Source of the DNA: Desulfobacterium sp.
GTDB taxonomy: Bacteria; Desulfobacterota; Desulfobacteria; Desulfobacterales; SURF-7
Length of the DNA stretch: 36,759 nt
Direction of reading: 5' to 3'
Assembly (NCBI GenBank): GCA_013824585.1
Contig: PNOB01000003.1
Coordinates: forward strand, 1 to 36,759
Of the stretch, positions 7,509-30,748 are shown in pieces (within the stretch, counting starts at the first letter, position 1; each line of letters begins with the position of its first letter). Position numbers and translations under genes: made by a program. A model generated the notes under the pieces. The model was not told the origin of the DNA. It saw only the letters and a program-made list of their open reading frames with translations, and did not search any database.

Positions 7509-9323
7509 TCAGTTTCCCGGTGTATATTGGGTAATCACACCATCAAAGGTGCCTGTAATCGTTCCTGTGATTGAGGTTTCATCTTGGCATGCAGCGTCCT
7601 GACACTGATACCCCCCCAATACATCTACATCAAAACTGCCTGTCAAACGCTCTCCATACTGGGTGCCATAAGTTTGTATGGTAACGCTTCCGGAAGTTCC
7701 GGCCATATCCGATCCGAAAGTAACTGGTTGTCCATTTGGTTTATCAATAATATCTTTACTGCTAAAGAGGACGATTGGCGTGTCGCATTGGCCGAAGCCC
7801 AGGTTCCAAGTACCTGTTCCCATGTAATTGTTCAGCACCACGGTTAAAATATCGCTGGTTGTAAAATTCATTACATTTCCGCCGGAACTGGCATAGATGG
7901 TTGGGACCATGTATTTGTTGATGCTGTCATCACACTCTCCAAGCGCAATCACCTTGAAATTAGGAGAAAATTTACCATAACCGGGAATATTTACATTTGC
8001 ACTCAGGGTTATGCCGGCTGGGCTGTTGTCCTGACATGACGCATGCGTATCGCATTGACCGTCGTAACAATCGATGAGCATGTTACAATTGTTATCCATG
8101 CCGTCTGTGCAGATCTCTGGGGCATTGGGGTGAATGGCTGCATTTTGATCATTACAGTCGCCTTGGACTTCCGAAAACCCATCCTTATCATCGTCCGTCA
8201 GTGCCCGAACAGGAACAAGCTTTACAAGGGACTGAATCGGACTATTTCCGTTGGCATCCACACAAATCGAGGTCTTCCGCAGATGGCCGTCTTCCATCAG
8301 CAGGAAGGTCCAGTCTCCTTTCGGGACATTGTAAAATGAACCGTTCTGACTCGTACCGATATAGATATCATCCGGAGTCAGATCATTTGGATTGATGGCC
8401 TGGATCTGCCGAAAATCCGGATTATCCAGTTTCAGGGAACCATCCGTATCATCGCAGCGCCTGATACCGAAAGCTTTTTTGATGGAATCGACATCGTCAT
8501 AAGTGTCATATGCCTCAATCAGAAATTTTATGGTTTTCCATTCCTGGACACCGGCGGCCCAACTGGATATGTCGGTAACACCATTGGAAATCGTTGCCTT
8601 GATTGCCTCCCCGGCAGCTTTGGGCCACTTTTGGATAATACAGGCAAGCTTTTCCGCTCTCCATTTCATGCATTCGGAAAATCTCGCATCTGTTGCAGCC
8701 GGCATTGGATTGCATTCCGGCAAACCATCACATTCATGAATAGCATCGGCAGCTCCTTTTCCTGCGGCAGCGACTGCTCCGAAAACGGACAGCAGAACAA
8801 GGGCGCCCCCTATCAGGCCGATGGACTGGGAATCCCGGATGACGACCGATGTTTCATCATTTCCGGATTCCAGTGAATCTGCGATGATTTTTTCCTGATC
8901 TTTCAATGCTTCCACGGAAAGGCTGAATGTGTCGGCCGCCGATTGAACATCATTGGCAAGCTCTGTGAGTTGAGCAATGAGATTGGCAGCCTCCTCAGGG
9001 TGTTCGTCAATATAGTCCTCGATCGCTTTCTGATTCGGGGACACTGTTCCAAATGCATCTTCAATCAGCTCCCTGCCGGACTTGAGGTCATTTTCCATTT
9101 CCACTGCACCGGATATCGCAGATTCGGCCGATCTGTTCTGACTGTCCACGGCATTTGCTACTGTCGTATTCGTGCTGGATGGAGTATTGGTGTTGTCCGT
9201 GCTATTGTCTGAACTGCTGCAACTTGATAAAAAAGGAGTGATAATAAAAAAGAAGATTATATGATAAATGAATAATTCCCGGATGACTGCATTGTTCCAA
9301 AAACGTTTGACATTTTTGTGCAT
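7509..9323 (-). CDS. Large Cys-rich lipoprotein with a putative metal-binding (MopE-like, DxDxDG...DCND...CxDGxDNNC) motif
   Basis: Hydrophobic N-region, LSSC lipobox and Ser/Thr/Asn linker; DDDKDGFSEVQGDCNDQNAAIHPNAPEICTDGMDNNCNMLIDC; AAGGAGG SD. Confidence 0.75.
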   Translation of the reverse strand: MHKNVKRFWNNAVIRELFIYHIIFFFIITPFLSSCSSSDNSTDNTNTPSSTNTTVANAVDSQNRSAESAISGAVEMENDLKSGRELIEDAFGTVSPNQKAIEDYIDEHPEEAANLIAQLTELANDVQSAADTFSLSVEALKDQEKIIADSLESGNDETSVVIRDSQSIGLIGGALVLLSVFGAVAAAGKGAADAIHECDGLPECNPMPAATDARFSECMKWRAEKLACIIQKWPKAAGEAIKATISNGVTDISSWAAGVQEWKTIKFLIEAYDTYDDVDSIKKAFGIRRCDDTDGSLKLDNPDFRQIQAINPNDLTPDDIYIGTSQNGSFYNVPKGDWTFLLMEDGHLRKTSICVDANGNSPIQSLVKLVPVRALTDDDKDGFSEVQGDCNDQNAAIHPNAPEICTDGMDNNCNMLIDCYDGQCDTHASCQDNSPAGITLSANVNIPGYGKFSPNFKVIALGECDDSINKYMVPTIYASSGGNVMNFTTSDILTVVLNNYMGTGTWNLGFGQCDTPIVLFSSKDIIDKPNGQPVTFGSDMAGTSGSVTIQTYGTQYGERLTGSFDVDVLGGYQCQDAACQDETSITGTITGTFDGVITQYTPGN

Positions 9324-9364
9324 ATTGCACCTCCTTTTGAGAAGAACTCGGTTTTCATGTGTAT

Positions 9365-9393
9365 TTTATATTTGAGATTCAATTGTGTGTCAA
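9365..9393 (-). promoter_or_regulatory. sigma70 promoter of the lipoprotein gene
   Basis: Minus strand TTGACA-N17-TATAAA. Confidence 0.55.
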
Positions 9394-9461
9394 GAAATTG
9401 AAATTCATCTTATTGGGTCAGGTCAAAAATCGAAATATGATCATGTTTTTTTAAAAAATGC

Positions 9462-9490
9462 TTGATTTTTAATGATACTATCATTAAAAT
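9462..9490 (+). promoter_or_regulatory. sigma70 promoter overlapped by an 11-1-11 inverted repeat, upstream of the AAA/DUF4143 gene
   Basis: TTGATT-N17-TAAAAT; TTTTAATGATA-C-TATCATTAAAA (9467-9489) covers the spacer and -10. Confidence 0.65.
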
Positions 9491-9498
9491 TCGATATT

Positions 9499-10752
9499 AT
9501 GTATCATCAAAGAATCCTCACCAACAGACTCGAAAGGCTTTTTTCGGTTTTTCCCCTGGTTGTCGTCAGCGGTGCCCGGCAGGTTGGCAAGAGCACACTG
9601 CTGGCCAATACTCTTGGCAGGGAAATGGACATGGTTGTCTTTGATCCGGTTATCGATATCGAAAATGCCCGACAGGATCCCGAGCTTTTTCTGAACAATC
9701 GTCCTCCTCCAGTCATTCTCGATGAAATCCAGTATTCTCCGGAGCTGGTGGCTGCCATAAAACGGAGGGTTGACCGGGAGTGCAAGCCTGGGCAATATGT
9801 CCTCACCGGATCTCAACAGTGGGGGGTGTTGCGGTCCATCTCGGAAAGTCTTGCGGGCAGGGCCGTTTTTCTTGATCTTGATGGTTTTACACTTTCGGAA
9901 ACAGTGAATCAGAGTGGTCACGAACCATGGCTTGAACAGTGGCTGACTGATCCCCTTGCCCTGGTCAAATCAAAATCAGGCCGCCTGCCGATAAAAAGAA
10001 CCCTTTATGAACAGCTTTGGCGAGGCTTCCTTCCGGATGCACAATTTATCCCCCTGGACACGATCCCTGCTTTTTATCAGGCTTATCAACGGACGTATAT
10101 TGAACGGGATGTTCGTCTGCTGGCAGATGTATCAGACTGGCAGTTGTTTGGCCGTTTTTTGCGATTAACAGCAGCCCTCACAGCTCAGGAGATCAATCAC
10201 AGCGAGATAGGCAGGGAGCTGGGAATTACCCCGCAAACAGCAGGACGCTGGCTTGATATTTTAAAAGCAACATTTCAGTGGTTTGAACTTCCGGCTTTTT
10301 CCGGAAATGCGGTAAAAAAAGTCAGCGGCAAACCCAAAGGATATATTTCCGATACTGGCCTTGCCTGCGCTGCACAGGCAATTTCATCGCCTACTGCTAT
10401 CGGCGGACACCCATTATGGGGCGCATTATTCGAGACCGCTTCCGTAGCGGAAATTAAAAAACAGTGCTCTTTTTTGTCGCCGTCCCCCAGGATGTATCAC
10501 TGGCGAGCCTATGGCGGTGCTGAAGTGGATATTTTACTGGAATATAACGGCAAATTCTACCCAATCGAAATCAAGGCCAAGACCAATCCAAGCCGCCGGG
10601 ATACCTCCGGGATTTCTGCTTTTCGGGCCGGATATCCAAATCTTTCCATTGAAAAAGGACTGATTCTGGCGCCGGTGGAAAGGGTATTGCAGATTTCAGA
10701 GAATGATTTTTCCTTACCATGGGATATCATGACGGAAACAGCAGAAGTTTGA
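9499..10752 (+). CDS. AAA_14-type ATPase with C-terminal DUF4143 (PD-(D/E)xK-like) domain
   Basis: GARQVGKST Walker A, ILDEIQ Walker B, LTGS, ESLAGR, YIERDV, GALFET, EVDILL...PIEIK; start placed at ATG 9499 (ORF track 9472). Confidence 0.88.
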   Translation: MYHQRILTNRLERLFSVFPLVVVSGARQVGKSTLLANTLGREMDMVVFDPVIDIENARQDPELFLNNRPPPVILDEIQYSPELVAAIKRRVDRECKPGQYVLTGSQQWGVLRSISESLAGRAVFLDLDGFTLSETVNQSGHEPWLEQWLTDPLALVKSKSGRLPIKRTLYEQLWRGFLPDAQFIPLDTIPAFYQAYQRTYIERDVRLLADVSDWQLFGRFLRLTAALTAQEINHSEIGRELGITPQTAGRWLDILKATFQWFELPAFSGNAVKKVSGKPKGYISDTGLACAAQAISSPTAIGGHPLWGALFETASVAEIKKQCSFLSPSPRMYHWRAYGGAEVDILLEYNGKFYPIEIKAKTNPSRRDTSGISAFRAGYPNLSIEKGLILAPVERVLQISENDFSLPWDIMTETAEV

Positions 10753-10866
10753 CTAAGGTTCTGATTGACTCAATCTAGTTAAAGTCCGATTTAATATTTT
10801 TAAAGGATGCCATCAACGCATGGCTTGCAGTTTTTTTACAAGAGTATTGTTTGTACTTCCTTCAAG

Positions 10867-11883
10867 CTATTCAACCAATATCGGATTTTGAACCAGCCAT
10901 TCTTTCAGGCGTTTGAATCCTTCTTCGGTGGAAATTTGAGGTGAATATCCCAGATCTTTCTTGGCAGCGCTGATATCAAACCAGTGAGATGTTCCCAGTT
11001 CGTTTGCCACGAATCGGGTCATTTTCGGCTCTCCGGGAATCCGGAAAACAGTGTATACAAACTCAAGGATTGCTCCAATGGTCCAAACCACCTTGACCGG
11101 GAGGGTTTTGGTAATCGGTGGCAAATCGGCGGCATTCAGGATTCCATTGATCATGTCCCACATGGGGATTGGTTTGTCCTGACTGATAAAATAGACCTTC
11201 CCGGAAAGCGACGGGTTTTCTTCCAGCTTTTTTGCAGCCAGAATATGGGCATCAGCGGCATTGTCAATATAGATGGTGTCCACCAGGTTGTTCCGGTTTC
11301 CCACACGGACCAGTTTTCTGGAACGCTGAATGACCCGCGGGACAAGATGTGGATCACCTGGTCCCCATATCAGGTGGGGACGAAGGATGATTGTATTCAA
11401 TCCCTGTTTTGCAGCTTCACGAACCTCTTTTTCCGCAATGGTTTTGGTTCGGGTATAATGGGTATGGGATTCTTCCGGATAGGGGAGGGATTCATTTACT
11501 CCTTCCATATCTTCACCAGTGAAGATAACACTGGGTGAACTGGTATAGATCAAATTTTTGATATTATTCTTTTTACAGGCATGGATTACGTTTCGGGTAC
11601 CCAGAACATTGGGTTTGAAATATTCATCATAGGTTCCCCAAACCCCTGGTTTTGCGGCAACATGATAAACAATATCCATTCCGGATAATGCATTTTCAAC
11701 TGCGTTTTTGTCGGAAAGATCCCCCTGAATCTGCTGAACACCCAAGGCATCAAGATCAGGATAGGAATGGCGGGAAAAATTCCATACCTGTTGACCTTGT
11801 TCAACCAGTTTCCGGATAATGGCTTTGCCTAAAAAGCCGCCTCCGCCGGTTACCAGCACTTTTTTTGGATACATGCTGTCCAT
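10867..11883 (-). CDS. oleD: OleD-like 2-alkyl-3-oxoalkanoate reductase (3-beta-HSD/extended SDR)
   Basis: VTGGGGFLG, HVAAK, YTSSPSV, YTRTK (YxxxK), LRPHLIWGPGDPHLVPR; sits with oleB/oleC homologues. Confidence 0.85.
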   Translation of the reverse strand: MDSMYPKKVLVTGGGGFLGKAIIRKLVEQGQQVWNFSRHSYPDLDALGVQQIQGDLSDKNAVENALSGMDIVYHVAAKPGVWGTYDEYFKPNVLGTRNVIHACKKNNIKNLIYTSSPSVIFTGEDMEGVNESLPYPEESHTHYTRTKTIAEKEVREAAKQGLNTIILRPHLIWGPGDPHLVPRVIQRSRKLVRVGNRNNLVDTIYIDNAADAHILAAKKLEENPSLSGKVYFISQDKPIPMWDMINGILNAADLPPITKTLPVKVVWTIGAILEFVYTVFRIPGEPKMTRFVANELGTSHWFDISAAKKDLGYSPQISTEEGFKRLKEWLVQNPILVE

Positions 11884-11900
11884 TTTATCTCCTAATGCTA

Positions 11901-11935
11901 AATTGATAATTAGTCATTAACAATTGTTAATTGAT
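11901..11935. repeat. Degenerate heptamer tandem containing a perfect 16-bp palindrome
   Basis: AATTGAT|AATTAGT|CATTAAC|AATTGTT|AATTGAT; ATTAACAATTGTTAAT at 11916-11931 is self-complementary. Confidence 0.5.
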
Positions 11936-12016
11936 AAGTCAGCGTTTATGCCCCTTCAGCTAATGCCAAATGCCACCAAGGGGAATGAACAATGACCGGG
12001 AGTTTTTGTAAAACAA

Positions 12017-13675
12017 TTATTTCAATTGCTCTTCCGCCCAGATGGCCAGTTCTTCCCGGATAATTTTTGTATGATGCAGGTCATCCACTGGAAGTACATT
12101 GTGAAACAGGATTGTTTTAATGTTCTGAGTGATTACATTTTTTTCTGCCAAAGCCAGAAGCTCCATTTCAATACGGTTTTGTTCAAGATTGTGGCTCTCT
12201 TCCAGTTCGACGCAAATCACCGGTGTTTTGTTTTCCTCTGACCCGATACCGACAAGTGCGCTTCGATAAACATCCGGGTGGGTATTGAAGATCGCTTCAC
12301 AGGGAATCGAATAAAATGTTCCCTGTTCTGTAATGACTCGATGGCTCTTCCTGCCGCAGAACCAGTAACGATTGTTCTTGTCCATCCATCCAAGGTCACC
12401 CATCCGGTGCCATGTTTCACTGTTTTCCTTTATTTTTTGCAGGGTGTCATGTTCACTGTTTTCCAGATAATTTCTGGATACAAGATCGCCCTTGACAATA
12501 AATTCACCAATCTCGCCATGTGGAAGCAGCAGATCATCGGAGAAAATGGATACAGGGGAATCTGTGATCTGAATCAGACGGACGTCAATCTCTTTGATCG
12601 GACGGCCAATACAGTTTCCATATCCTTTTTCACTCAAGCCTTTTGTCTCGGAAAGGATTTCGTTGCTGCCAATGGACAGGATCGGCATGGCTTCTGTCGA
12701 ACCATAGGAAGTATGAACTTCAGCGGTTCCGGATAACATTTTAGCAAATCGCTCAACGCGTGAAGGCTGAAACGGCGCACCAACGGAAATAACTCTTTTC
12801 AGGGAAGAAAGCATAATCCTGTTATTTTGCCCATATCGCCCCACCAGGTCTAACAGGGCAGGGGAGGTGATCATGTTGGTAACACCCTGGTCAAAGATCG
12901 TCTCAATGATGTTCTGCGGGTTCACAAGGGCCAGGTGTGCAGGATCCATATCCGGAATAACCGAAGTCATGCCAAGAGCCGGGCCAAAAAGAGCAAATGA
13001 AGAAAGTGTCGCGAGATCGATTTCATCGGATGAAATATCAAACTGGTCTTTGATTTGCCGGAATTGGGCAGTCAGATTGCCATGGGTATATACCACCGCC
13101 TTGGCTGGTCCGGTGTTCCCGGGGGTGAACAGAATTGCGGCAGTATCATCTGCCTGTGTATCGGCAATAGCAGGTGTGATCCACGGAACTTTTCGAATGT
13201 CTTCCATAGTCATCCCGCCCCAGAACAGACGCTGGCCAGTCGTGATAAAGGTTTTCACACTTTTAAAAAGATCCGGGCGTAATATTTTGAGGATCCGGGT
13301 CCAGGGAACTCCGATAAAGGCTTCGGGCCTTGTTTCCTTCACGCAGCGAAGCAGAGGGGTGATTCCCATGCCAGGATCAACCAGAACCGGAATCGCACCG
13401 ATCTTCAAGAGGGCAAAGGCAAGTGAGAAAAAATCAAGGCATGGCTTTATCATGAGAATGGTTTTTGTATTGCGAACAACACCTGCTTTTTCAAGGCCGG
13501 CAGCCATACAGTCCGATTCCTGTTCCAGTTGACGAAAAGTGAAATGGGAATAAGTCAGACGACCATTTTGATTCCTGGATTCAGGATATACAACAGCTCG
13601 TTTATACGGGTCTTTTTTTGCCGTCTCCGTCACACCGGAGGAGACATTGACAATTGTTTCGTTTGATAGGGTCAC
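12017..13675 (-). CDS. oleC: OleC-like AMP-dependent ligase (olefin beta-lactone synthetase family) with divergent active-site motifs
   Basis: GAIPVLVDPGMG, FALFGPALGMTSVIPDMDP, WHRMGDLG, WFCGRKSHRV, CEAIFNTHP; P-loop reads FTPGNTGPAKA; GTG start overlaps the upstream stop. Confidence 0.85.
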   Translation of the reverse strand: MTLSNETIVNVSSGVTETAKKDPYKRAVVYPESRNQNGRLTYSHFTFRQLEQESDCMAAGLEKAGVVRNTKTILMIKPCLDFFSLAFALLKIGAIPVLVDPGMGITPLLRCVKETRPEAFIGVPWTRILKILRPDLFKSVKTFITTGQRLFWGGMTMEDIRKVPWITPAIADTQADDTAAILFTPGNTGPAKAVVYTHGNLTAQFRQIKDQFDISSDEIDLATLSSFALFGPALGMTSVIPDMDPAHLALVNPQNIIETIFDQGVTNMITSPALLDLVGRYGQNNRIMLSSLKRVISVGAPFQPSRVERFAKMLSGTAEVHTSYGSTEAMPILSIGSNEILSETKGLSEKGYGNCIGRPIKEIDVRLIQITDSPVSIFSDDLLLPHGEIGEFIVKGDLVSRNYLENSEHDTLQKIKENSETWHRMGDLGWMDKNNRYWFCGRKSHRVITEQGTFYSIPCEAIFNTHPDVYRSALVGIGSEENKTPVICVELEESHNLEQNRIEMELLALAEKNVITQNIKTILFHNVLPVDDLHHTKIIREELAIWAEEQLK

Positions 13676-14232
13676 TTTGAAATTTTTTCTTTTATTTTTT
13701 GGATAAAACTTTTTTCTTCGGTATTTTTCAGTCGAACAGTCTGTTTTTTTGATGTTTCAAGGGCTTCGGTTGCTGAAGCCAGCAACTCTTCCTTTTTGGA
13801 TGCCAGAAGTTCCGTTCCTTTTTCCGTGTTAACCGTGTACGCGACAAACAGGGGTTCGATGTTTTTTTCCAGATTTTCAATTAGTGTCTGAAGATCTTTT
13901 TGGGTTTTACTCCACATTTTTTTTTCATCCTGAACAATTTTTTTCTGTTTCGGATACTCATTTTCTATTATTTCAAGACGCTTCAATTCCTTTTCAATCA
14001 TAACAATTTCGTGGTTGAGTTCGAAAAGAGAGTTATAAACATCGGGCATGGATTGATGGACAAAGGCGATGGTTTCCTCCTGGAGATGGATATTTGCCAT
14101 TTCATTGTCAGAAGTCTTTTCTGCATTCAAAAATTTATAGGCAAAAAATCCTCCTGCTGCAACAGCTATTGTAATCATCAACAGCAGAATGAAAAGCAGT
14201 TTTCCTGAGTTATTGTATTTATTTTTCATCAT
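13672..14232 (-). CDS. Hypothetical single-TM, coiled-coil protein inside the ole operon (orfX)
   Basis: N-terminal hydrophobic anchor LLFILLLMITIAVAAGGFFAY followed by ~150 aa of E/K/L-rich helical sequence; GTGA overlap with oleC. Confidence 0.8.
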   Translation of the reverse strand: MMKNKYNNSGKLLFILLLMITIAVAAGGFFAYKFLNAEKTSDNEMANIHLQEETIAFVHQSMPDVYNSLFELNHEIVMIEKELKRLEIIENEYPKQKKIVQDEKKMWSKTQKDLQTLIENLEKNIEPLFVAYTVNTEKGTELLASKKEELLASATEALETSKKQTVRLKNTEEKSFIQKIKEKISK

Positions 14233-14281
14233 CGATACATTGCAATCGTTTTATGTGCCTAAAAAGACAGACCAACCTATT

Positions 14282-15193
14282 TTATATTGGATGAGATTTT
14301 AAGAAATTTTGAACAATCGGCAGAATTTTATCCGGTACATCCTCCAGCAGATAGTGTCCGGCATCTGAAAAAAGATGGTATTCTGCATCTGGAAATCTTC
14401 GCCTCCATTCTTCAAAAAATGCGATTGTAAAAACAAAATCGTGTTTCCCCCAGCAGATCAGCTTGGGGATGTCCGAAAGCCTGTGAAGATTCTGATCCAC
14501 ATATTGCCCTAAATTATAACTGGGATCGCCTGGCTTTACAGGAATATCCTGAACAAACTTCAATGTTGCGATCCGGTTTTCCCATGAGTTGTAAGGGGCA
14601 ATCAGACCAGCTTTGACATCTTTTGTCAGACGTTTGTATGGAGCCATATACAGGGCAGCCCTTGAGAACAGATTAAACCCCTTTACCCCGATCGTGGCAA
14701 ACGGGGCGATATGGCGTATCAACCAGAGACGCAGCGGAAGCCCTTTTCCGCCAGGGGTAAAAAAACCGGCAGTGTTGGTAATCACGATTCGTTTAACTTT
14801 TGTAAGATTCCTCAATGCAAAGGCAAGGCCGATCATCCCGCCCCAGTCGTGAAGAACCAGTGTGATGCGGCTTTTTATATCAACATGATCCAGCAATGCC
14901 TCCAGATCCTCGACCCGGCTTTGGTATCGGTAATCATACTGGTTCTCAGATGGCTTGTCCGAAAGACCGCAACCAATGTGATCCGGCACAATGGTTCGAT
15001 AGCCGGAAGACAATCCTTTCACAAGGCTTCGATAATAAAATGACCAGGTAGGGTTTCCATGCAGCATGACCACAGGATCACCGGAACCTTCATCAAGGTA
15101 ATGCATCTGCATACCGTTTCTGTTCATAAAATGGGATTGAAACGGGTAGAGGTGCTGAAAAGGCGTAATATCAATTGGTTTACTGTTTTTCAT
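14282..15193 (-). CDS. oleB: OleB-like beta-lactone decarboxylase (haloalkane dehalogenase-like alpha/beta hydrolase)
   Basis: HGNPTWSFYYR, PDHIGCGLSDKP, HDWGG nucleophile elbow, WGKHDFVF, AGHYLLED; next to oleC/oleD homologues. Confidence 0.85.
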   Translation of the reverse strand: MKNSKPIDITPFQHLYPFQSHFMNRNGMQMHYLDEGSGDPVVMLHGNPTWSFYYRSLVKGLSSGYRTIVPDHIGCGLSDKPSENQYDYRYQSRVEDLEALLDHVDIKSRITLVLHDWGGMIGLAFALRNLTKVKRIVITNTAGFFTPGGKGLPLRLWLIRHIAPFATIGVKGFNLFSRAALYMAPYKRLTKDVKAGLIAPYNSWENRIATLKFVQDIPVKPGDPSYNLGQYVDQNLHRLSDIPKLICWGKHDFVFTIAFFEEWRRRFPDAEYHLFSDAGHYLLEDVPDKILPIVQNFLKSHPI

Positions 15194-15283
15194 TCTTGTC
15201 TGATACCTGAGTAGAGGGTTTTTTCAAAGCGATTTCCGGATGAATTGGCCGTCTTTGATTCAATTACGATAAAGATAAGGACT

Positions 15284-15312
15284 TCTATAGCTTACAAGCC
15301 TCTATAAAGCAA
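15284..15312 (-). promoter_or_regulatory. Candidate sigma70 promoter for the ole operon
   Basis: Minus strand TTGCTT-N17-TATAGA in the topA-oleB gap. Confidence 0.45.
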
Positions 15313-15328
15313 GGGAATGTATTTTTCA

Positions 15329-17602
15329 TTACTTGCTCTCTTTGTAGTTACAGTCCGGATTTGCGCATTTTAAAAAAGTTCCCTGTTTTTTGCTGGTTTT
15401 TTCAACCAGGAATTTTGAATCACATTGCGGACATACCTGGGCAATCGGTTTGTCCCAGGTTGCAAAAGAGCAGTCCGGATAACGACTGCATCCATAGAAA
15501 ACCTTGCCACGTTTTGAGTTTCGTTCCACAAGGTCTCCTCCGCAATCCTTTTCCGGGCATTTTACTCCTGTGGTTTTCCCTCCTGAAGCACCACCATTAA
15601 CGGATTGGGTATTTTTACAATCCGGATATCCGGAGCAGGCCAGAAACTCTCCATAACGACCTTGTTTGAGAACCATGGGTTTTTGGCATTTTTCGCAGAA
15701 CTTGCCCTCTGCCAGCTCAAAAGACGGTTCAACAGGATGAACTTTTCCTTTTTCATCCCGGGAAAAATTTCTGGAATAGGAGCAATCCGGGTATCCGTTA
15801 CAAGCGAGAAAGGGGCCGTTTTTACCCACTTTGATATGAAGCTTTTTTTGGCACCGGGGACAATCCAGATCTGTGGGAAAACCGACCCCTTTGATGCTGA
15901 GCATGTTTTCCTTTGCAAATTCGAGCTTCTGGGAAAACTGATCATAAAACGTGCGAAGAACCTCCAGATAGGGCAGTTCGCCGATCTCGACCCGGTCCAG
16001 ATTGGTTTCGAATTTGGCTGTAAAATCAACATCCAGTATGTCCGGAAAGTTGTCCACCAGAAGGTCGTTTACAAGAAATCCAAGTTCACTGGGTCGGAAG
16101 TACCGATTTTCAAAATCCACATATCCTTTATCCCGGATTGTGGTCAGAATGGTTGCATAGGTGCTGGGCCGGCCAATACCGTTTTCTTCCAGTTCTTTTA
16201 CCAGTGAAGCCTCGGAGAATCGGGGCGGAGGCTGTGTAAAGTGCTGTTTGGGCTCCAGTTTGATCAGCTTGAGTGCCATTCCTTCGGTGAGTTCCGGAAG
16301 AACCTGTTTCTTCTGCTCTTTGTCAATACTCTCATCCGTTGAAATATAGAGAGCCATGAATCCGGGGAATTTAACCGTAGATCCGCTGACATTGAATGTA
16401 TAGTCTTTGGATTGTATGGACACGGATTTCTGGTCAATCAGTGCCTGGGACATCTGGGAAGCGACAAACCGTTTCCAGATCAGTGTATACAATTCATGCT
16501 GATCTTTTCCAAGATGGGGGGCCAGTTTTTCCGGGGTGTTATAAACCGATGTCGGACGGATGGCTTCGTGTGCATCCTGTGCTTTGTTTTTATTTTTAAA
16601 AAATCGGGGGCTCTCAATGCCGAATTCCGGTCCAAATTTTTCCCGGATAAGATCCTGGGCTTCCAAAGCAGCCTCGTTGGCAATCCTTACCGAATCCGTA
16701 CGCATATAAGTAATGAGACCCGTGGGTTCTCCCGGGCTGATTTCAATTCCTTCATAAAGCTGTTGAGCGACAACCATGGTTTTTTTTGCGGAGAATCTCA
16801 ACTTGCTGATGGCTTCCTGCTGAAGCTTGCTTGTGATAAAGGGGGGCAGGGGGTTTCTCTTGGTTGTTTTATTATTGATTTTATCAACTGCAAAGGCCGC
16901 GTTTCTTAATGCCTCAAGAATTTCATTGGCATGTTTTTCATCCGGTATTTCAATTTTTTCCCCATTTTTTTTGATCAACTTTGCATCAAAGGCAGGTGGG
17001 TATTTTCCTTCCAGATTGGCTGTAATGGACCAGTACTCGACAGGCGTAAATGCCTGAATGGCACGCTCCCGTTCACATATCATCCGGACGGTAACCGATT
17101 GAACCCGCCCGGCACTTAATCCGCCTTGCACCTTTCTCCACAGAAGTGGTGAAATCTGATATCCGACAAGCCTGTCGAGAATTCGGCGGGTTTGCTGTGC
17201 ATCATATTTATCCTTATTGAGTTCGTGTACGGAGCGGATCCCTTCATCAATACCGTTTTTTGTAAGTTCATGAAAAAGCACGCGATAAAAATTCCGGCCC
17301 TTTTTTTTCAGGATATCCGCTGTGTGATAGGCAATGGCCTCCCCCTCCCGATCCGGGTCAGGAGCCAGATAAACATCGGATGCATTGGCCGCCGCAGCCT
17401 TGAGGGATTTGATAACATTCTGTTTCCCTTTTATGTCGATATATTTTGGCGTAAAGTTGTTTTCAATATCAATTCCCATTTCATTGGGGGGTAAATCTTT
17501 TATATGGCCTGAAGTGGCAGTTACATTAAATTGATCCCCAATATATTTTTTTATGGTTTTCACCTTGGTTGGGGACTCGACGATAATTAAGGGTTTTGAC
17601 AC
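15329..17602 (-). CDS. topA: DNA topoisomerase I (type IA)
   Basis: LIIVESPTK, DPDREGEAI, SAGRVQS, LITYMRTDS, GIGRPSTYA, C-terminal C4 zinc ribbons. Confidence 0.97.
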   Translation of the reverse strand: MSKPLIIVESPTKVKTIKKYIGDQFNVTATSGHIKDLPPNEMGIDIENNFTPKYIDIKGKQNVIKSLKAAAANASDVYLAPDPDREGEAIAYHTADILKKKGRNFYRVLFHELTKNGIDEGIRSVHELNKDKYDAQQTRRILDRLVGYQISPLLWRKVQGGLSAGRVQSVTVRMICERERAIQAFTPVEYWSITANLEGKYPPAFDAKLIKKNGEKIEIPDEKHANEILEALRNAAFAVDKINNKTTKRNPLPPFITSKLQQEAISKLRFSAKKTMVVAQQLYEGIEISPGEPTGLITYMRTDSVRIANEAALEAQDLIREKFGPEFGIESPRFFKNKNKAQDAHEAIRPTSVYNTPEKLAPHLGKDQHELYTLIWKRFVASQMSQALIDQKSVSIQSKDYTFNVSGSTVKFPGFMALYISTDESIDKEQKKQVLPELTEGMALKLIKLEPKQHFTQPPPRFSEASLVKELEENGIGRPSTYATILTTIRDKGYVDFENRYFRPSELGFLVNDLLVDNFPDILDVDFTAKFETNLDRVEIGELPYLEVLRTFYDQFSQKLEFAKENMLSIKGVGFPTDLDCPRCQKKLHIKVGKNGPFLACNGYPDCSYSRNFSRDEKGKVHPVEPSFELAEGKFCEKCQKPMVLKQGRYGEFLACSGYPDCKNTQSVNGGASGGKTTGVKCPEKDCGGDLVERNSKRGKVFYGCSRYPDCSFATWDKPIAQVCPQCDSKFLVEKTSKKQGTFLKCANPDCNYKESK

Positions 17603-28125: not shown

Positions 28126-28557
28126 TTATAGGGTATAAACCTTATCCCCGTCAATAACCACCACCCCATTTTCCTGCAGGACTCGGACCGCTTCATCCAG
28201 CTTTTCAAATCGGAATATCATGACTGCATTGCTGGAATTCGGCTGGACAAATGCGTACATATATTCAACATTAATACTCACCTTATGAAGTATATTGAGA
28301 ATTTTGTACAAACCTCCTGGTTTGTCTTCAACCTCAACAGCCACGACAAAGGTTTTTCCCACAGTAAAATTTTGTTTTTTCAGGGCTTCTTCAGCTTTTT
28401 GATTGTTGTCAACGATCATGCGCAATACGCCAAAGTCAGAGGTGTCTGCAAGGGATAATGCGCGGATATTGATCCCTGATTCTGCGAGGATGCCGGTTAC
28501 TTCAGCAATACGCCCGGATTTATTTTCCAAAAAAACCGAAATCTGTTCAACTTTCAT
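28126..28557 (-). CDS. Tandem ACT-domain protein (paaK-associated)
   Basis: [16 protein letters not shown]...[18 protein letters not shown]...DKPGGL...NVEYMYAF; AAGGAGG SD before ATG 28557. Confidence 0.92.
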
Positions 28558-28594
28558 TTCTGACCTCCTTATCGGGTTCAAAGCATCGTTGTTT

Positions 28595-29896
28595 TTATAG
28601 TTTTCGGTTATCAATGACACGAATCGCTTTTCCTTCACTCCGGGCAATGGTTTTGGGTTCAACCAGTTTGACCGCAGCAGAGACACCCAAAATCTCTTTG
28701 ATGTCTTTTGAGATTTTTTTCTCAAGATTCTGGAGATTTCTGACTTCATCCGAGAACAGCTGTTCGCCAACCTCAACAAGAACTGACAACGTGTCCAGAT
28801 TGTCTTTCCGGTCAACCACCAGTTGATAATGGGGTTCGACTTCGTCAATCTGCATCAGTACGCTTTCAATCTGTGAGGGGAACACATTGACTCCCCGGAT
28901 GATCAGCATATCGTCTGTTCGGCCGCTGACCCGTTTCATTCTTACATGAGATCGGCCACAAATGCATGGTTCAGGATTCAGTGCAGAGATATCTCTTGTC
29001 CGGTAACGGATTACAGGAAACGCTTCTTTTGTAATAGAGGTGAAAACAAGCTCTCCGGTTTCGCCATAGGGCAGGACATCACCGGTTTCAGGATTAATGA
29101 TCTCTGGTATAAAATGATCCTCGTAAATATGAAGGCCGGCTTTTGCTTCATGACATTCAATGGCAACTCCCGGTCCCATGACCTCACTGAGGCCATAAAT
29201 ATCAACCGCGATGATTTTCAGCTTGTTCTCAATTTCCTGCCGCATGCTCTCAGACCAGGGTTCTGCCCCGAAGATACCGTATTTAAACTTCAGGTCTTTA
29301 AATGAAACACCCATCTCTTCAGCCACTTCTGCAAGATGCAGGGTATAAGAGGGGGTGGCTGTCAGGATTGTGGGACCGAAATCTTTCATGATGATAATCT
29401 GTCTTTTGGTGTTACCACCGGAAACCGGTATAATGGACGCCCCAAGTTTTTCCGCTCCATAATGAACGCCAAGTCCTCCGGTAAACAGTCCGTATCCGTA
29501 TGCATTATGGATAATATCTCCTCGTGTGGCTCCACCTGCGGATAAAGAACGTGCCATGAGTTCAGACCATGTTCCGATGTCGCGGGCAGTGTAACCGACA
29601 ACCGTAGGCTTTCCTGTGGTTCCGGAGGATGCATGAATGCGGACGACATTATCCATCGGGACGGCAAACATCCCAAACGGGTAATTATCGCGCAGATCCT
29701 GTTTGGTCGTAAACGGTATTTTTTGTATATCCGCAAGTGACCTGATTTCAGATGGGGTGATTCCTGCTTCTTCAAATTTTTTTTGATAAAATGGAACGGT
29801 TGCATAAACACGATTCAGCGTGGCTTGAAGTCGTCTGAGCTGGATGGCTTCAAGTGCTTCCCTTGGCATGGTTTCGTATTCAATATTGAATATCAT
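28595..29896 (-). CDS. paaK: Phenylacetate--CoA ligase family protein
   Basis: [63 protein letters not shown]. Confidence 0.93.
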
Positions 29897-29953
29897 GTTT
29901 TTATCCTTTGATCGGGTTTCCCATTATCCAGTGTCGGACAATAGGATATCTGA

Positions 29954-30748
29954 TTATTTATTGAGTTGCCCCTTAAATTCCGGTTTTCGTTTTTCAAGAA
30001 AAGCCGTTGTACCTTCCCGAGCGTCTTCTCCAGCCATGCAGATGGAGAATGCGTCGATTTCCAATTTACAGCCTGTGGCAAGATCAACATCCATTCCGCT
30101 GTTTACTGCCTGTTTGGCGGCTCTCAGACTGACTCTTCCCTTGGATGCAACCATATTGGCTGTTTTTAATACCTCTTCCATGAGAAGCTCGGGAGGCAGT
30201 ATTCTATTCACCATCCCGATCTGATGAGCTTCAGATGCACTAATCATTTTTCCAGTAAAAATCAACTCTTTGGCCATATTTTTTCCAATCTGCCGGGGCA
30301 GCCGCTGGGTCCCGCCAAATCCAGGGATAAGTCCCAGTGTAATCTCAGGTAGACCGAATTTTGCATTTTCAGATGCATAAATAAAATCACATGCCAGGGC
30401 AACTTCACTTCCACCCCCTAGCGCAAATCCATTTACTGCTGCGATTACCGGTATTGGCAATGCTTGAAGTTTATTCATGACCTGATGACCCATTTCCGCA
30501 AAATGTTTGGCCTGTATTGAATCAAGACAGCGGGCAAGTTCTGTAATATCCGCACCTGCGACAAATGATTTATCTCCTGCTCCGGTTAAAACCAGTACAC
30601 GTATTTCCTGATTTTTTTGAATTTCATCCAAGGCTGCTGAGAATTCAGATAAAAGCTCCGAGTTCAGTGCATTCAAGGCTTTGGGGCGATTAAACGTTAT
30701 GATGGAGATATTGTTTTCAATTTGAAAAAGGATCGTATTATATTTCAT
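29954..30748 (-). CDS. Enoyl-CoA hydratase (crotonase family)
   Basis: NRPKALNAL, FVAGADI, AVNGFALGGGSEVALACD, FGLPEITLGLIPGFGGTQRL. Confidence 0.93.
   Translation of the reverse strand: MKYNTILFQIENNISIITFNRPKALNALNSELLSEFSAALDEIQKNQEIRVLVLTGAGDKSFVAGADITELARCLDSIQAKHFAEMGHQVMNKLQALPIPVIAAVNGFALGGGSEVALACDFIYASENAKFGLPEITLGLIPGFGGTQRLPRQIGKNMAKELIFTGKMISASEAHQIGMVNRILPPELLMEEVLKTANMVASKGRVSLRAAKQAVNSGMDVDLATGCKLEIDAFSICMAGEDAREGTTAFLEKRKPEFKGQLNK

Follow-up and report, generated by a model that had tools for sequence, protein, structure and literature searches.

The stretch of DNA analysed here, called the window throughout, is the 36,759 nt (36.7 kb) of contig PNOB01000003.1 from Desulfobacterium sp. 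(assembly GCA_013824585.1). Our subject is a block of four genes within it, oleB, orfX, oleC and oleD in the order of reading. Positions 10867 to 15193 are filled exactly by these four co-oriented open reading frames (ORFs) on the minus strand (Table 1). The oleB and orfX genes are 49 bp apart, and the stop codon of orfX overlaps the GTG start of oleC by 4 bases (GTGA). The Ole pathway is regarded as one of four enzymes, and homologues of OleB, OleC and OleD are encoded here in the same oleB-oleC-oleD order as in Shewanella oneidensis and Xanthomonas campestris. Unlike those OleABCD systems, the window has no oleA beside oleB and has orfX in addition. An initial annotation of this DNA had assigned OleB, OleC and OleD, placed topA upstream and an opposite-strand AAA gene downstream, and described a membrane-anchored gene inserted between oleB and oleC. 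All of this is borne out, and the inserted gene indeed encodes a protein with one N-terminal hydrophobic helix.

The assignments of OleB and OleD follow from domain content and from invariant residues. OleB-type decarboxylases have an alpha/beta-hydrolase fold, with an aspartate nucleophile and a catalytic histidine. The window OleB matches Abhydrolase_1 (Pfam, E 6.9e-30) and keeps all 53 of the positions that are at least 97% invariant among 52 OleB sequences, a set that includes H115-D116-W117-G118-G119 and H280; it departs from the consensus at two of the sites conserved to at least 90% in the same sequences. In NCBIfam it comes closest to haloalkane-dehalogenase models, without reaching the cut-off of any, and no OleB-specific model was noticed in its NCBIfam match list. 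The homologues of this protein number 7847 at E <= 1e-60, and some of them are named cis-3-alkyl-4-acyloxetan-2-one decarboxylase by the Joint Genome Institute (JGI). Since the decarboxylase positions are intact, OleB argues for an olefin as the end product. Extended SDRs have a Rossmann GxxGxxG motif and a catalytic Tyr-x3-Lys; OleD, for its part, carries TGGGGFLG and Y143/K147 at these places and keeps 59 invariant positions with one deviation (47 sequences); beyond the 2-alkyl-3-oxoalkanoate reductases, its next family is HpnA, at 158 bits only. OleC matches the AMP-binding family PF00501 (E 1.7e-45), scores 643 bits on NF006754 against a cut-off of 478, and keeps 97 invariant positions, and its ATP-binding and catalytic motifs remain.

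For comparison with related loci, the window OleC and 17 homologues were aligned and one genome per species was scanned. A relative was encoded in 594 of the 600 stretches obtained, and the best 80 were kept. These come mostly from metagenome-assembled genomes (MAGs) of Desulfobacterales, with some from Geobacteraceae, Planctomycetota, Acidobacteriota and others, so that the set is biased to query-like sequences. Their ORFs were called and then labelled with phmmer and hidden Markov models (HMMs). In 64 of the 80 loci, oleB lies beside oleC, upstream and on the same strand, as it does in the window. For 8 of these 64 the contig is too short to tell what precedes oleB; in 52 of the 56 that can be assessed, OleA is encoded directly upstream. 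The OleA candidates are KAS-III proteins scoring 426–466 bits on NF006720 (cut-off 285), and before oleA most such loci have a large gene of 1350–2500 amino acids (aa) with ketoacyl-synthase and FabA domains, on account of which we regard it as a PfaC-like synthase. The order [PfaC-like]-oleA-oleB-oleC(-oleD), that of the pfa-ole type, is thus found in 52 of 56 assessable loci, including those of Geobacteraceae (L062, L067, L071). The four others (L004, L039, L058 and L079) have at least 1 kb of upstream sequence and no adjacent oleA; in L039 it is secA that stands directly before oleB, a housekeeping gene paralleling topA in the window. Therefore, an oleB-C-D block with no adjacent oleA is a minority arrangement, of which the window is not the sole example.

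The window itself is without oleA. The 29 window ORFs scanned with Pfam (10 and 19) contain no thiolase or ketosynthase domain. An OleA HMM, built from the 34 proteins encoded directly upstream of oleB in the related loci, matched no window ORF but 54 ORFs of those loci, and in a tblastn search with the same 34 proteins, covering the whole window in six frames, the best E was 0.031. Thus oleA is absent from the 36.7 kb, with no remnant, and a complete oleABCD set is not present there, as the OleA thiolase was not found. In this the initial annotation, which had seen no thiolase or KAS-III-like gene in the window, was correct.

The position of orfX is shared with a group of relatives. Homologues were found by HMM in 13 of the 80 loci, from Desulfobacter, Desulfobacula, Desulfotignum, Desulforapulum, Desulfobacterium MAGs and relatives; an unfiltered search of the other 67 loci with a broader HMM found no further relatives, the next best match having an E of 0.068. 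In 10 of the 13 the stop of orfX overlaps or abuts the start of oleC, as called by a simple ORF caller, so the gene is conserved at the position that it occupies in the window; the lack of conservation there that the initial annotation had named as refuting its reading is thus not observed. This overlap is kept across lineages whose OleC proteins are only 50–55% identical. Pairwise identities of OrfX and of OleC co-vary (Spearman 0.68, over 91 non-independent pairs). The window shares with these Desulfobacter-type loci the oleB-orfX-oleC core. Unlike it, they have oleA and a short PfaC-like gene (1356–1898 aa) upstream, 12 of the 13 lack an adjacent oleD (the exception is L024), and their OrfX proteins, 26–36% identical to that of the window, have a lysine-rich extension of 50–90 aa before the membrane helix. 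All eight orfX loci with readable sequence upstream of oleB have OleA, above the NF006720 cut-off, and a PfaC-like gene directly upstream. Accordingly, orfX is part of ordinary pfa-ole clusters in a single branch of the Desulfobacterales and does not mark an OleA-independent system.

Whether oleB-orfX-oleC arose once can be considered with the OleC tree of 80 sequences. The window OleC falls inside the Desulfobacterales group, and the 13 orfX loci form a clade from which, with weak support (SH-aLRT, a likelihood-ratio branch test, 84–90), it is excluded. When the window, the 13 orfX loci and L031 were forced into one clade, the tree had a log-likelihood 5.07 above that of the quick free search and a p-value of 0.563 in the approximately unbiased test (p-AU). 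Since the forced clade is not rejected, a single origin is possible, with the caveat that the window sequence may be subject to long-branch attraction.

OrfX matches no Pfam family (E <= 1e-3) and no NCBIfam family. A word-indexed search returned 12 proteins at 51–100% identity, including OrfX of the window itself, all of them unnamed except one (P0013) that is called FliL by JGI. This label was considered and set aside: no FliL model matched OrfX, and none matched the homologues P0001, P0134 and P0200 at E <= 0.1. With a profile of 24 sequences against 1.84 billion representatives, 214 matches were obtained at E <= 1e-3, of which 102 reached E <= 1e-30. The members of this family are nearly all 170–280 aa long, and F57, P94, Q96, V130 and G139 (window numbering) are 89–98% conserved in 124 representatives. 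OrfX of the window fits the family pattern, having an N-terminal transmembrane helix, a helical domain of about 140 aa and the five conserved residues. Among the 150 profile matches listed, none is a fusion of OrfX with an Ole protein, and the only longer protein with an OrfX-like domain is P0273 (507 aa; domain at 350–504; a DUF5685 N-terminus). A further candidate for a fused form, P0280, proved to be a repeat-protein false positive. The ratio of nonsynonymous to synonymous change (dN/dS) for orfX is 0.42, 0.29 and 0.21 in three locus pairs, which indicates purifying selection.

The AlphaFold2 model of OrfX has a mean predicted local distance difference test (pLDDT) score of 81.5 and a predicted template-modelling (pTM) score of 0.66. 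It consists of a transmembrane helix at 9–38, a poorly predicted linker, and a bundle of helices at 52–61, 63–92, 94–134 and 136–185; for most of residues 50–170 the pLDDT exceeds 90. In a Foldseek search of the Protein Data Bank (PDB) nothing matched at E <= 1e-3; helical-bundle surface proteins of Borrelia came nearest, with a template-modelling score of 0.44. A sequence-profile search of the PDB gave designed helical repeats and short chance matches only. In the Atlas search, the whole protein matched unnamed clusters only (scores 0.78 and 0.76), and residues 44–186 gave no usable match.

The orientation of OrfX in the membrane can be approached through the charges that flank its helix. Of 120 family members of 160–300 aa, 116 have exactly one hydrophobic segment. 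Lysine plus arginine residues are more numerous in the 15 residues before the segment than in the 15 after it in 91 of the 120, equal in 9 and fewer in 20, with means of 4.8 and 2.6. By the positive-inside rule, the flank rich in lysine and arginine stays cytoplasmic. The N-terminus of OrfX would therefore be cytoplasmic and its helical domain outside the cytoplasm, and the conserved domain is predicted to be periplasmic, a location that argues against its docking the cytoplasmic OleBCD enzymes. The idea that OrfX tethers a BCD complex to the membrane, put forward in the initial annotation, is on this inferred topology doubtful.

Taken together, we propose, with a probability of roughly 55%, that the block is a displaced oleB-orfX-oleC-oleD module of the pfa-ole olefin pathway whose oleA is located outside the window, and that OrfX is a lineage-specific membrane accessory protein. 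OleD would reduce the 2-alkyl-3-oxo acid, OleC would close the beta-lactone using ATP, and OleB would decarboxylate the beta-lactone to a cis-olefin. The block would have become separated from the PfaC-like synthase and oleA that are usually upstream of it and would now stand after topA. Since oleA is absent from the window and the block appears displaced, the pathway would depend on an oleA beyond the 36.7 kb. Its product would most likely still be a long-chain, possibly polyunsaturated, olefin. OrfX, in turn, would most likely be co-produced with OleC and act as an accessory factor in the membrane. We think it likelier to work in the membrane or on its periplasmic face, where it might handle or position the very hydrophobic product, than to anchor OleBCD on the cytoplasmic side. 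It is tempting to go further and to see in OrfX a hitherto unrecognised fifth Ole/Pfa component of the sulfate-reducing Desulfobacterales, a bitopic inner-membrane protein co-produced with OleC whose periplasmic bundle takes up, places or exports the olefin or which, were the topology reversed, docks OleBCD. This extension is tentative, and we would give it the lesser chance of being right.

Several observations weigh against our proposal. Within the 36.7 kb examined, this genome shows neither oleA nor a pfa gene. The role given to OrfX is drawn solely from the order of the genes and the positive-inside rule. Two opposite-strand genes part orfX from oleC in three of the 13 loci that have it (L026, L032 and L048), and in L026 and L032 the 6 kb or so upstream of orfX contains no oleB; orfX is thus not invariably tied to the Ole enzymes. 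OleC reaches 541 and 522 bits on NF045785 and NF045786 (olefin beta-lactone synthetase), below the cut-offs of 850 and 900, and OleD reaches 436 and 405 bits on NF042423 and NF042422 (2-alkyl-3-oxoalkanoate reductase), below 580, these cut-offs being curated by NCBIfam for the Shewanella and Xanthomonas equivalogs and, for OleC, narrow. At 25 sites with at least 90% conservation across 72 sequences, OleC also has another residue. The changes include S187N and G193A in the TxGxTGxxKG phosphate-binding loop, F224L/P225S/L226S, and R533L/N535H, of which R533L is near the C-terminal lysine. In the OleC tree its end branch is 0.73, the median being 0.31, and no longer relative branch was seen. Such divergence could reflect a different substrate or a loosening of constraint, and it is the sole hint, from sequence, of a shifted substrate or activity.

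The divergence of OleC, together with the lack of oleA at its usual position, would be expected if oleA had been lost from the genome and the four genes were an inactive or drifting remnant. Decay of this kind seems unlikely, as all four ORFs are intact and OleB and OleD are almost unchanged at their invariant sites. The OleC changes themselves are in large part common to relatives: 19 and 21 of the 25 deviating residues are present in P0014 (90% identical) and P0015 (88% identical), N187 occurs in six sequences down to 60% identity, and the OleC motifs remain. Because they are common to relatives at this distance, the changes look maintained and not the result of random decay. The divergence is not tied to orfX either, since the Desulfobacter-type orfX loci have the consensus residue at all 25 sites; it is a trait that the window's own lineage has kept. 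The same divergence, the missing oleA and a co-encoded membrane protein whose gene overlaps oleC would speak for the model of the initial annotation, in which a membrane-tethered BCD module stands alone, receives its substrate from a condensing enzyme that is not OleA (a Pfa enzyme or polyketide synthase, for example) and makes something other than the usual olefin. The annotation's gene identities, the absence of oleA and the inserted membrane gene stand, but the interpretation built on them is very doubtful. OrfX coexists with OleA in all eight assessable orfX-bearing relatives, the flanking charges in 91 of 120 family members predict a periplasmic location for its helical domain, and nothing points to a non-olefin product, the invariant positions of OleB (53 of 53) and OleD (59) being kept.

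A further possibility concerns orfX only: it could be a passenger, an unrelated membrane protein gene that entered an ancestral ole cluster in a single event and has been passed on with it since. The absence of any recognisable domain or fold match would agree with this, and unrelated genes do enter ole clusters, as two small ORFs have done in L051 and a DUF4357 gene in L024. Moreover, orfX persists apart from oleC in L026, L032 and L048, and the context data cover the 13 loci and the window, against some 200 further clusters in the family. We nevertheless consider a passenger improbable, in view of the purifying selection on orfX, the co-variation of OrfX and OleC identities, and the overlap with oleC in the window and in 10 of the 13 loci despite the low identity of their OleC proteins.

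The displaced pfa-ole module that we favour has its closest evolutionary relatives in the tandem pfa-ole clusters of anaerobic Deltaproteobacteria, the Type I clusters of PMC3098273. In Geobacter bemidjiensis, according to PMC4882568, pfaD,A,B,C-oleA,B,C,D-pfaE lie in tandem and a C31:9 hydrocarbon is made. Unlike these clusters, the window no longer has the section with the pfaC-like gene and oleA, in whose place topA is found, and has orfX, which the Geobacteraceae loci are without. Shulse and Allen 2011 (PMC3098273) state that ole genes need not be linked to pfa clusters, and the OleBCD complex is described in PMC6463001 as forming apart from OleA. Closest to an inserted gene such as orfX comes the Fig. 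6 legend of PMC7064751, which mentions '0 to 3 intermediate genes' for clusters of the oleABCD type, and the same source has the oleBC fusions of Actinobacteria, which likewise couple the production of OleB and OleC; in the window the two genes are separate, with a third between them. Our literature search found no description of a membrane protein inside ole clusters or of the OrfX family; the arrangement survey of Sukovich et al. 2010 is outside that search and might list such arrangements.

We know of no explanation for how the extremely hydrophobic Ole product leaves a soluble enzyme complex for the membrane. OrfX, which is conserved, encoded in overlap with oleC and a member of an unannotated family, is a concrete candidate for this missing membrane step in anaerobic sulfate reducers. 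This candidate is testable, but the Ole chemistry is probably the one already known, and the practical value is modest. The survey design may also matter. Published ole surveys, by the methods given in PMC7158056 and PMC7064751, start from OleA and require oleB, oleC or oleD nearby, so that split arrangements like that of the window are discarded. The distribution of ole genes may thus be under-counted.

Table 1. Genes and intergenic gaps of the ole block and its immediate flanks in the window
Feature	Position	Strand	Description
topA	15329-17602	-	Upstream boundary, housekeeping; TIGR01051 800.6 bits against a cut-off of 456
topA-oleB gap	15194-15328	-	135 bp; the position of oleA in most relatives
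oleB	14282-15193	-	303 aa; haloalkane-dehalogenase-like alpha/beta-hydrolase, putative beta-lactone decarboxylase
orfX	13672-14232	-	186 aa; single-pass membrane protein with helical bundle, uncharacterised conserved family
oleC	12017-13675	-	552 aa; ANL-superfamily adenylating enzyme, putative olefin beta-lactone synthetase, divergent lineage
oleC-oleD gap	11884-12016	-	133 bp, AT-rich, with a 16-nt direct repeat
oleD	10867-11883	-	338 aa; extended short-chain dehydrogenase/reductase (SDR), putative 2-alkyl-3-oxoalkanoate reductase
AAA_14/DUF4143 ATPase gene	9472-10752	+	Downstream boundary, opposite strand; Pfam scan

Some features of the related loci may be recorded here. The PfaC-like synthase is 1356–1460 aa in L024, L036, L037, L043, L046, L057 and L061 and 1898 aa in L066; it is about 2300–2500 aa in most loci other than those of the orfX type. 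In L036 and L046 a rhomboid-family gene precedes it. A conserved opposite-strand gene of 432–448 aa then follows oleC in 11 of the 13 orfX loci (L036, L037, L041, L043, L046, L048, L057, L066, L075, L026 and L032), and the copy in L036 has DHH, DHHA1 and CBS domains (Pfam). In L061 oleC is followed by an MGMT-like gene; the oleB of this locus, at 8355-9265 in a chromosome-level Desulfobacter MAG, is in two ORFs (123 and 180 aa), through a frameshift or a sequencing error. The genes between orfX and oleC, at 6785-9759 in L026, 6640-9698 in L032 and 3095-6132 in L048, encode a DUF3482 GTPase and a DUF2868 protein, by a Pfam scan of the L026 pair only. In L051, from a Desulfuromonadales MAG, the two small ORFs between oleB and oleC (110 and 126 aa, at 9290-9999) are by eye nucleotidyltransferase/HEPN-like, and in L024 it is likewise between oleB and oleC that the DUF4357 protein is encoded. 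In the OleC tree, L013 (Nitrospinaceae) and L001, a Desulfobacterales MAG, are sisters, each on an end branch of 0.11, which suggests a recent transfer or a mis-binned contig.

Around the ole block of the window, dprA and topA lie upstream of oleB on the same strand, and no sign of a mobile element was found, there being no tRNA, no Rfam family and no notable flanking repeats. A second acyl-activating group is located at 28126-30748 on the minus strand, about 13 kb from the ole genes, and its link to them is not evident; it encodes an ACT-domain protein, an AMP-binding enzyme with AMP-binding_C_2 (433 aa) and an enoyl-CoA hydratase. For the topA-oleB gap, where a candidate promoter had been annotated initially, a consensus scan gave no promoter-like and no terminator-like site at its threshold. 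Over positions 10600-15500 the sigma-70 scan gave 11 sites, against 8.5 +/- 3.1 in shuffled sequences, and a weak promoter-like site was seen at 11909-11882, in the oleC-oleD gap. The 16-nt direct repeat of that gap, D18, has its copies at 11894-11909 and 11922-11937 with a spacing of 28 nt (AATGCTAAATTGATAA and AATTGTTAATTGATAA), and the repeat may be an operator, or part of an internal promoter region, for oleD.

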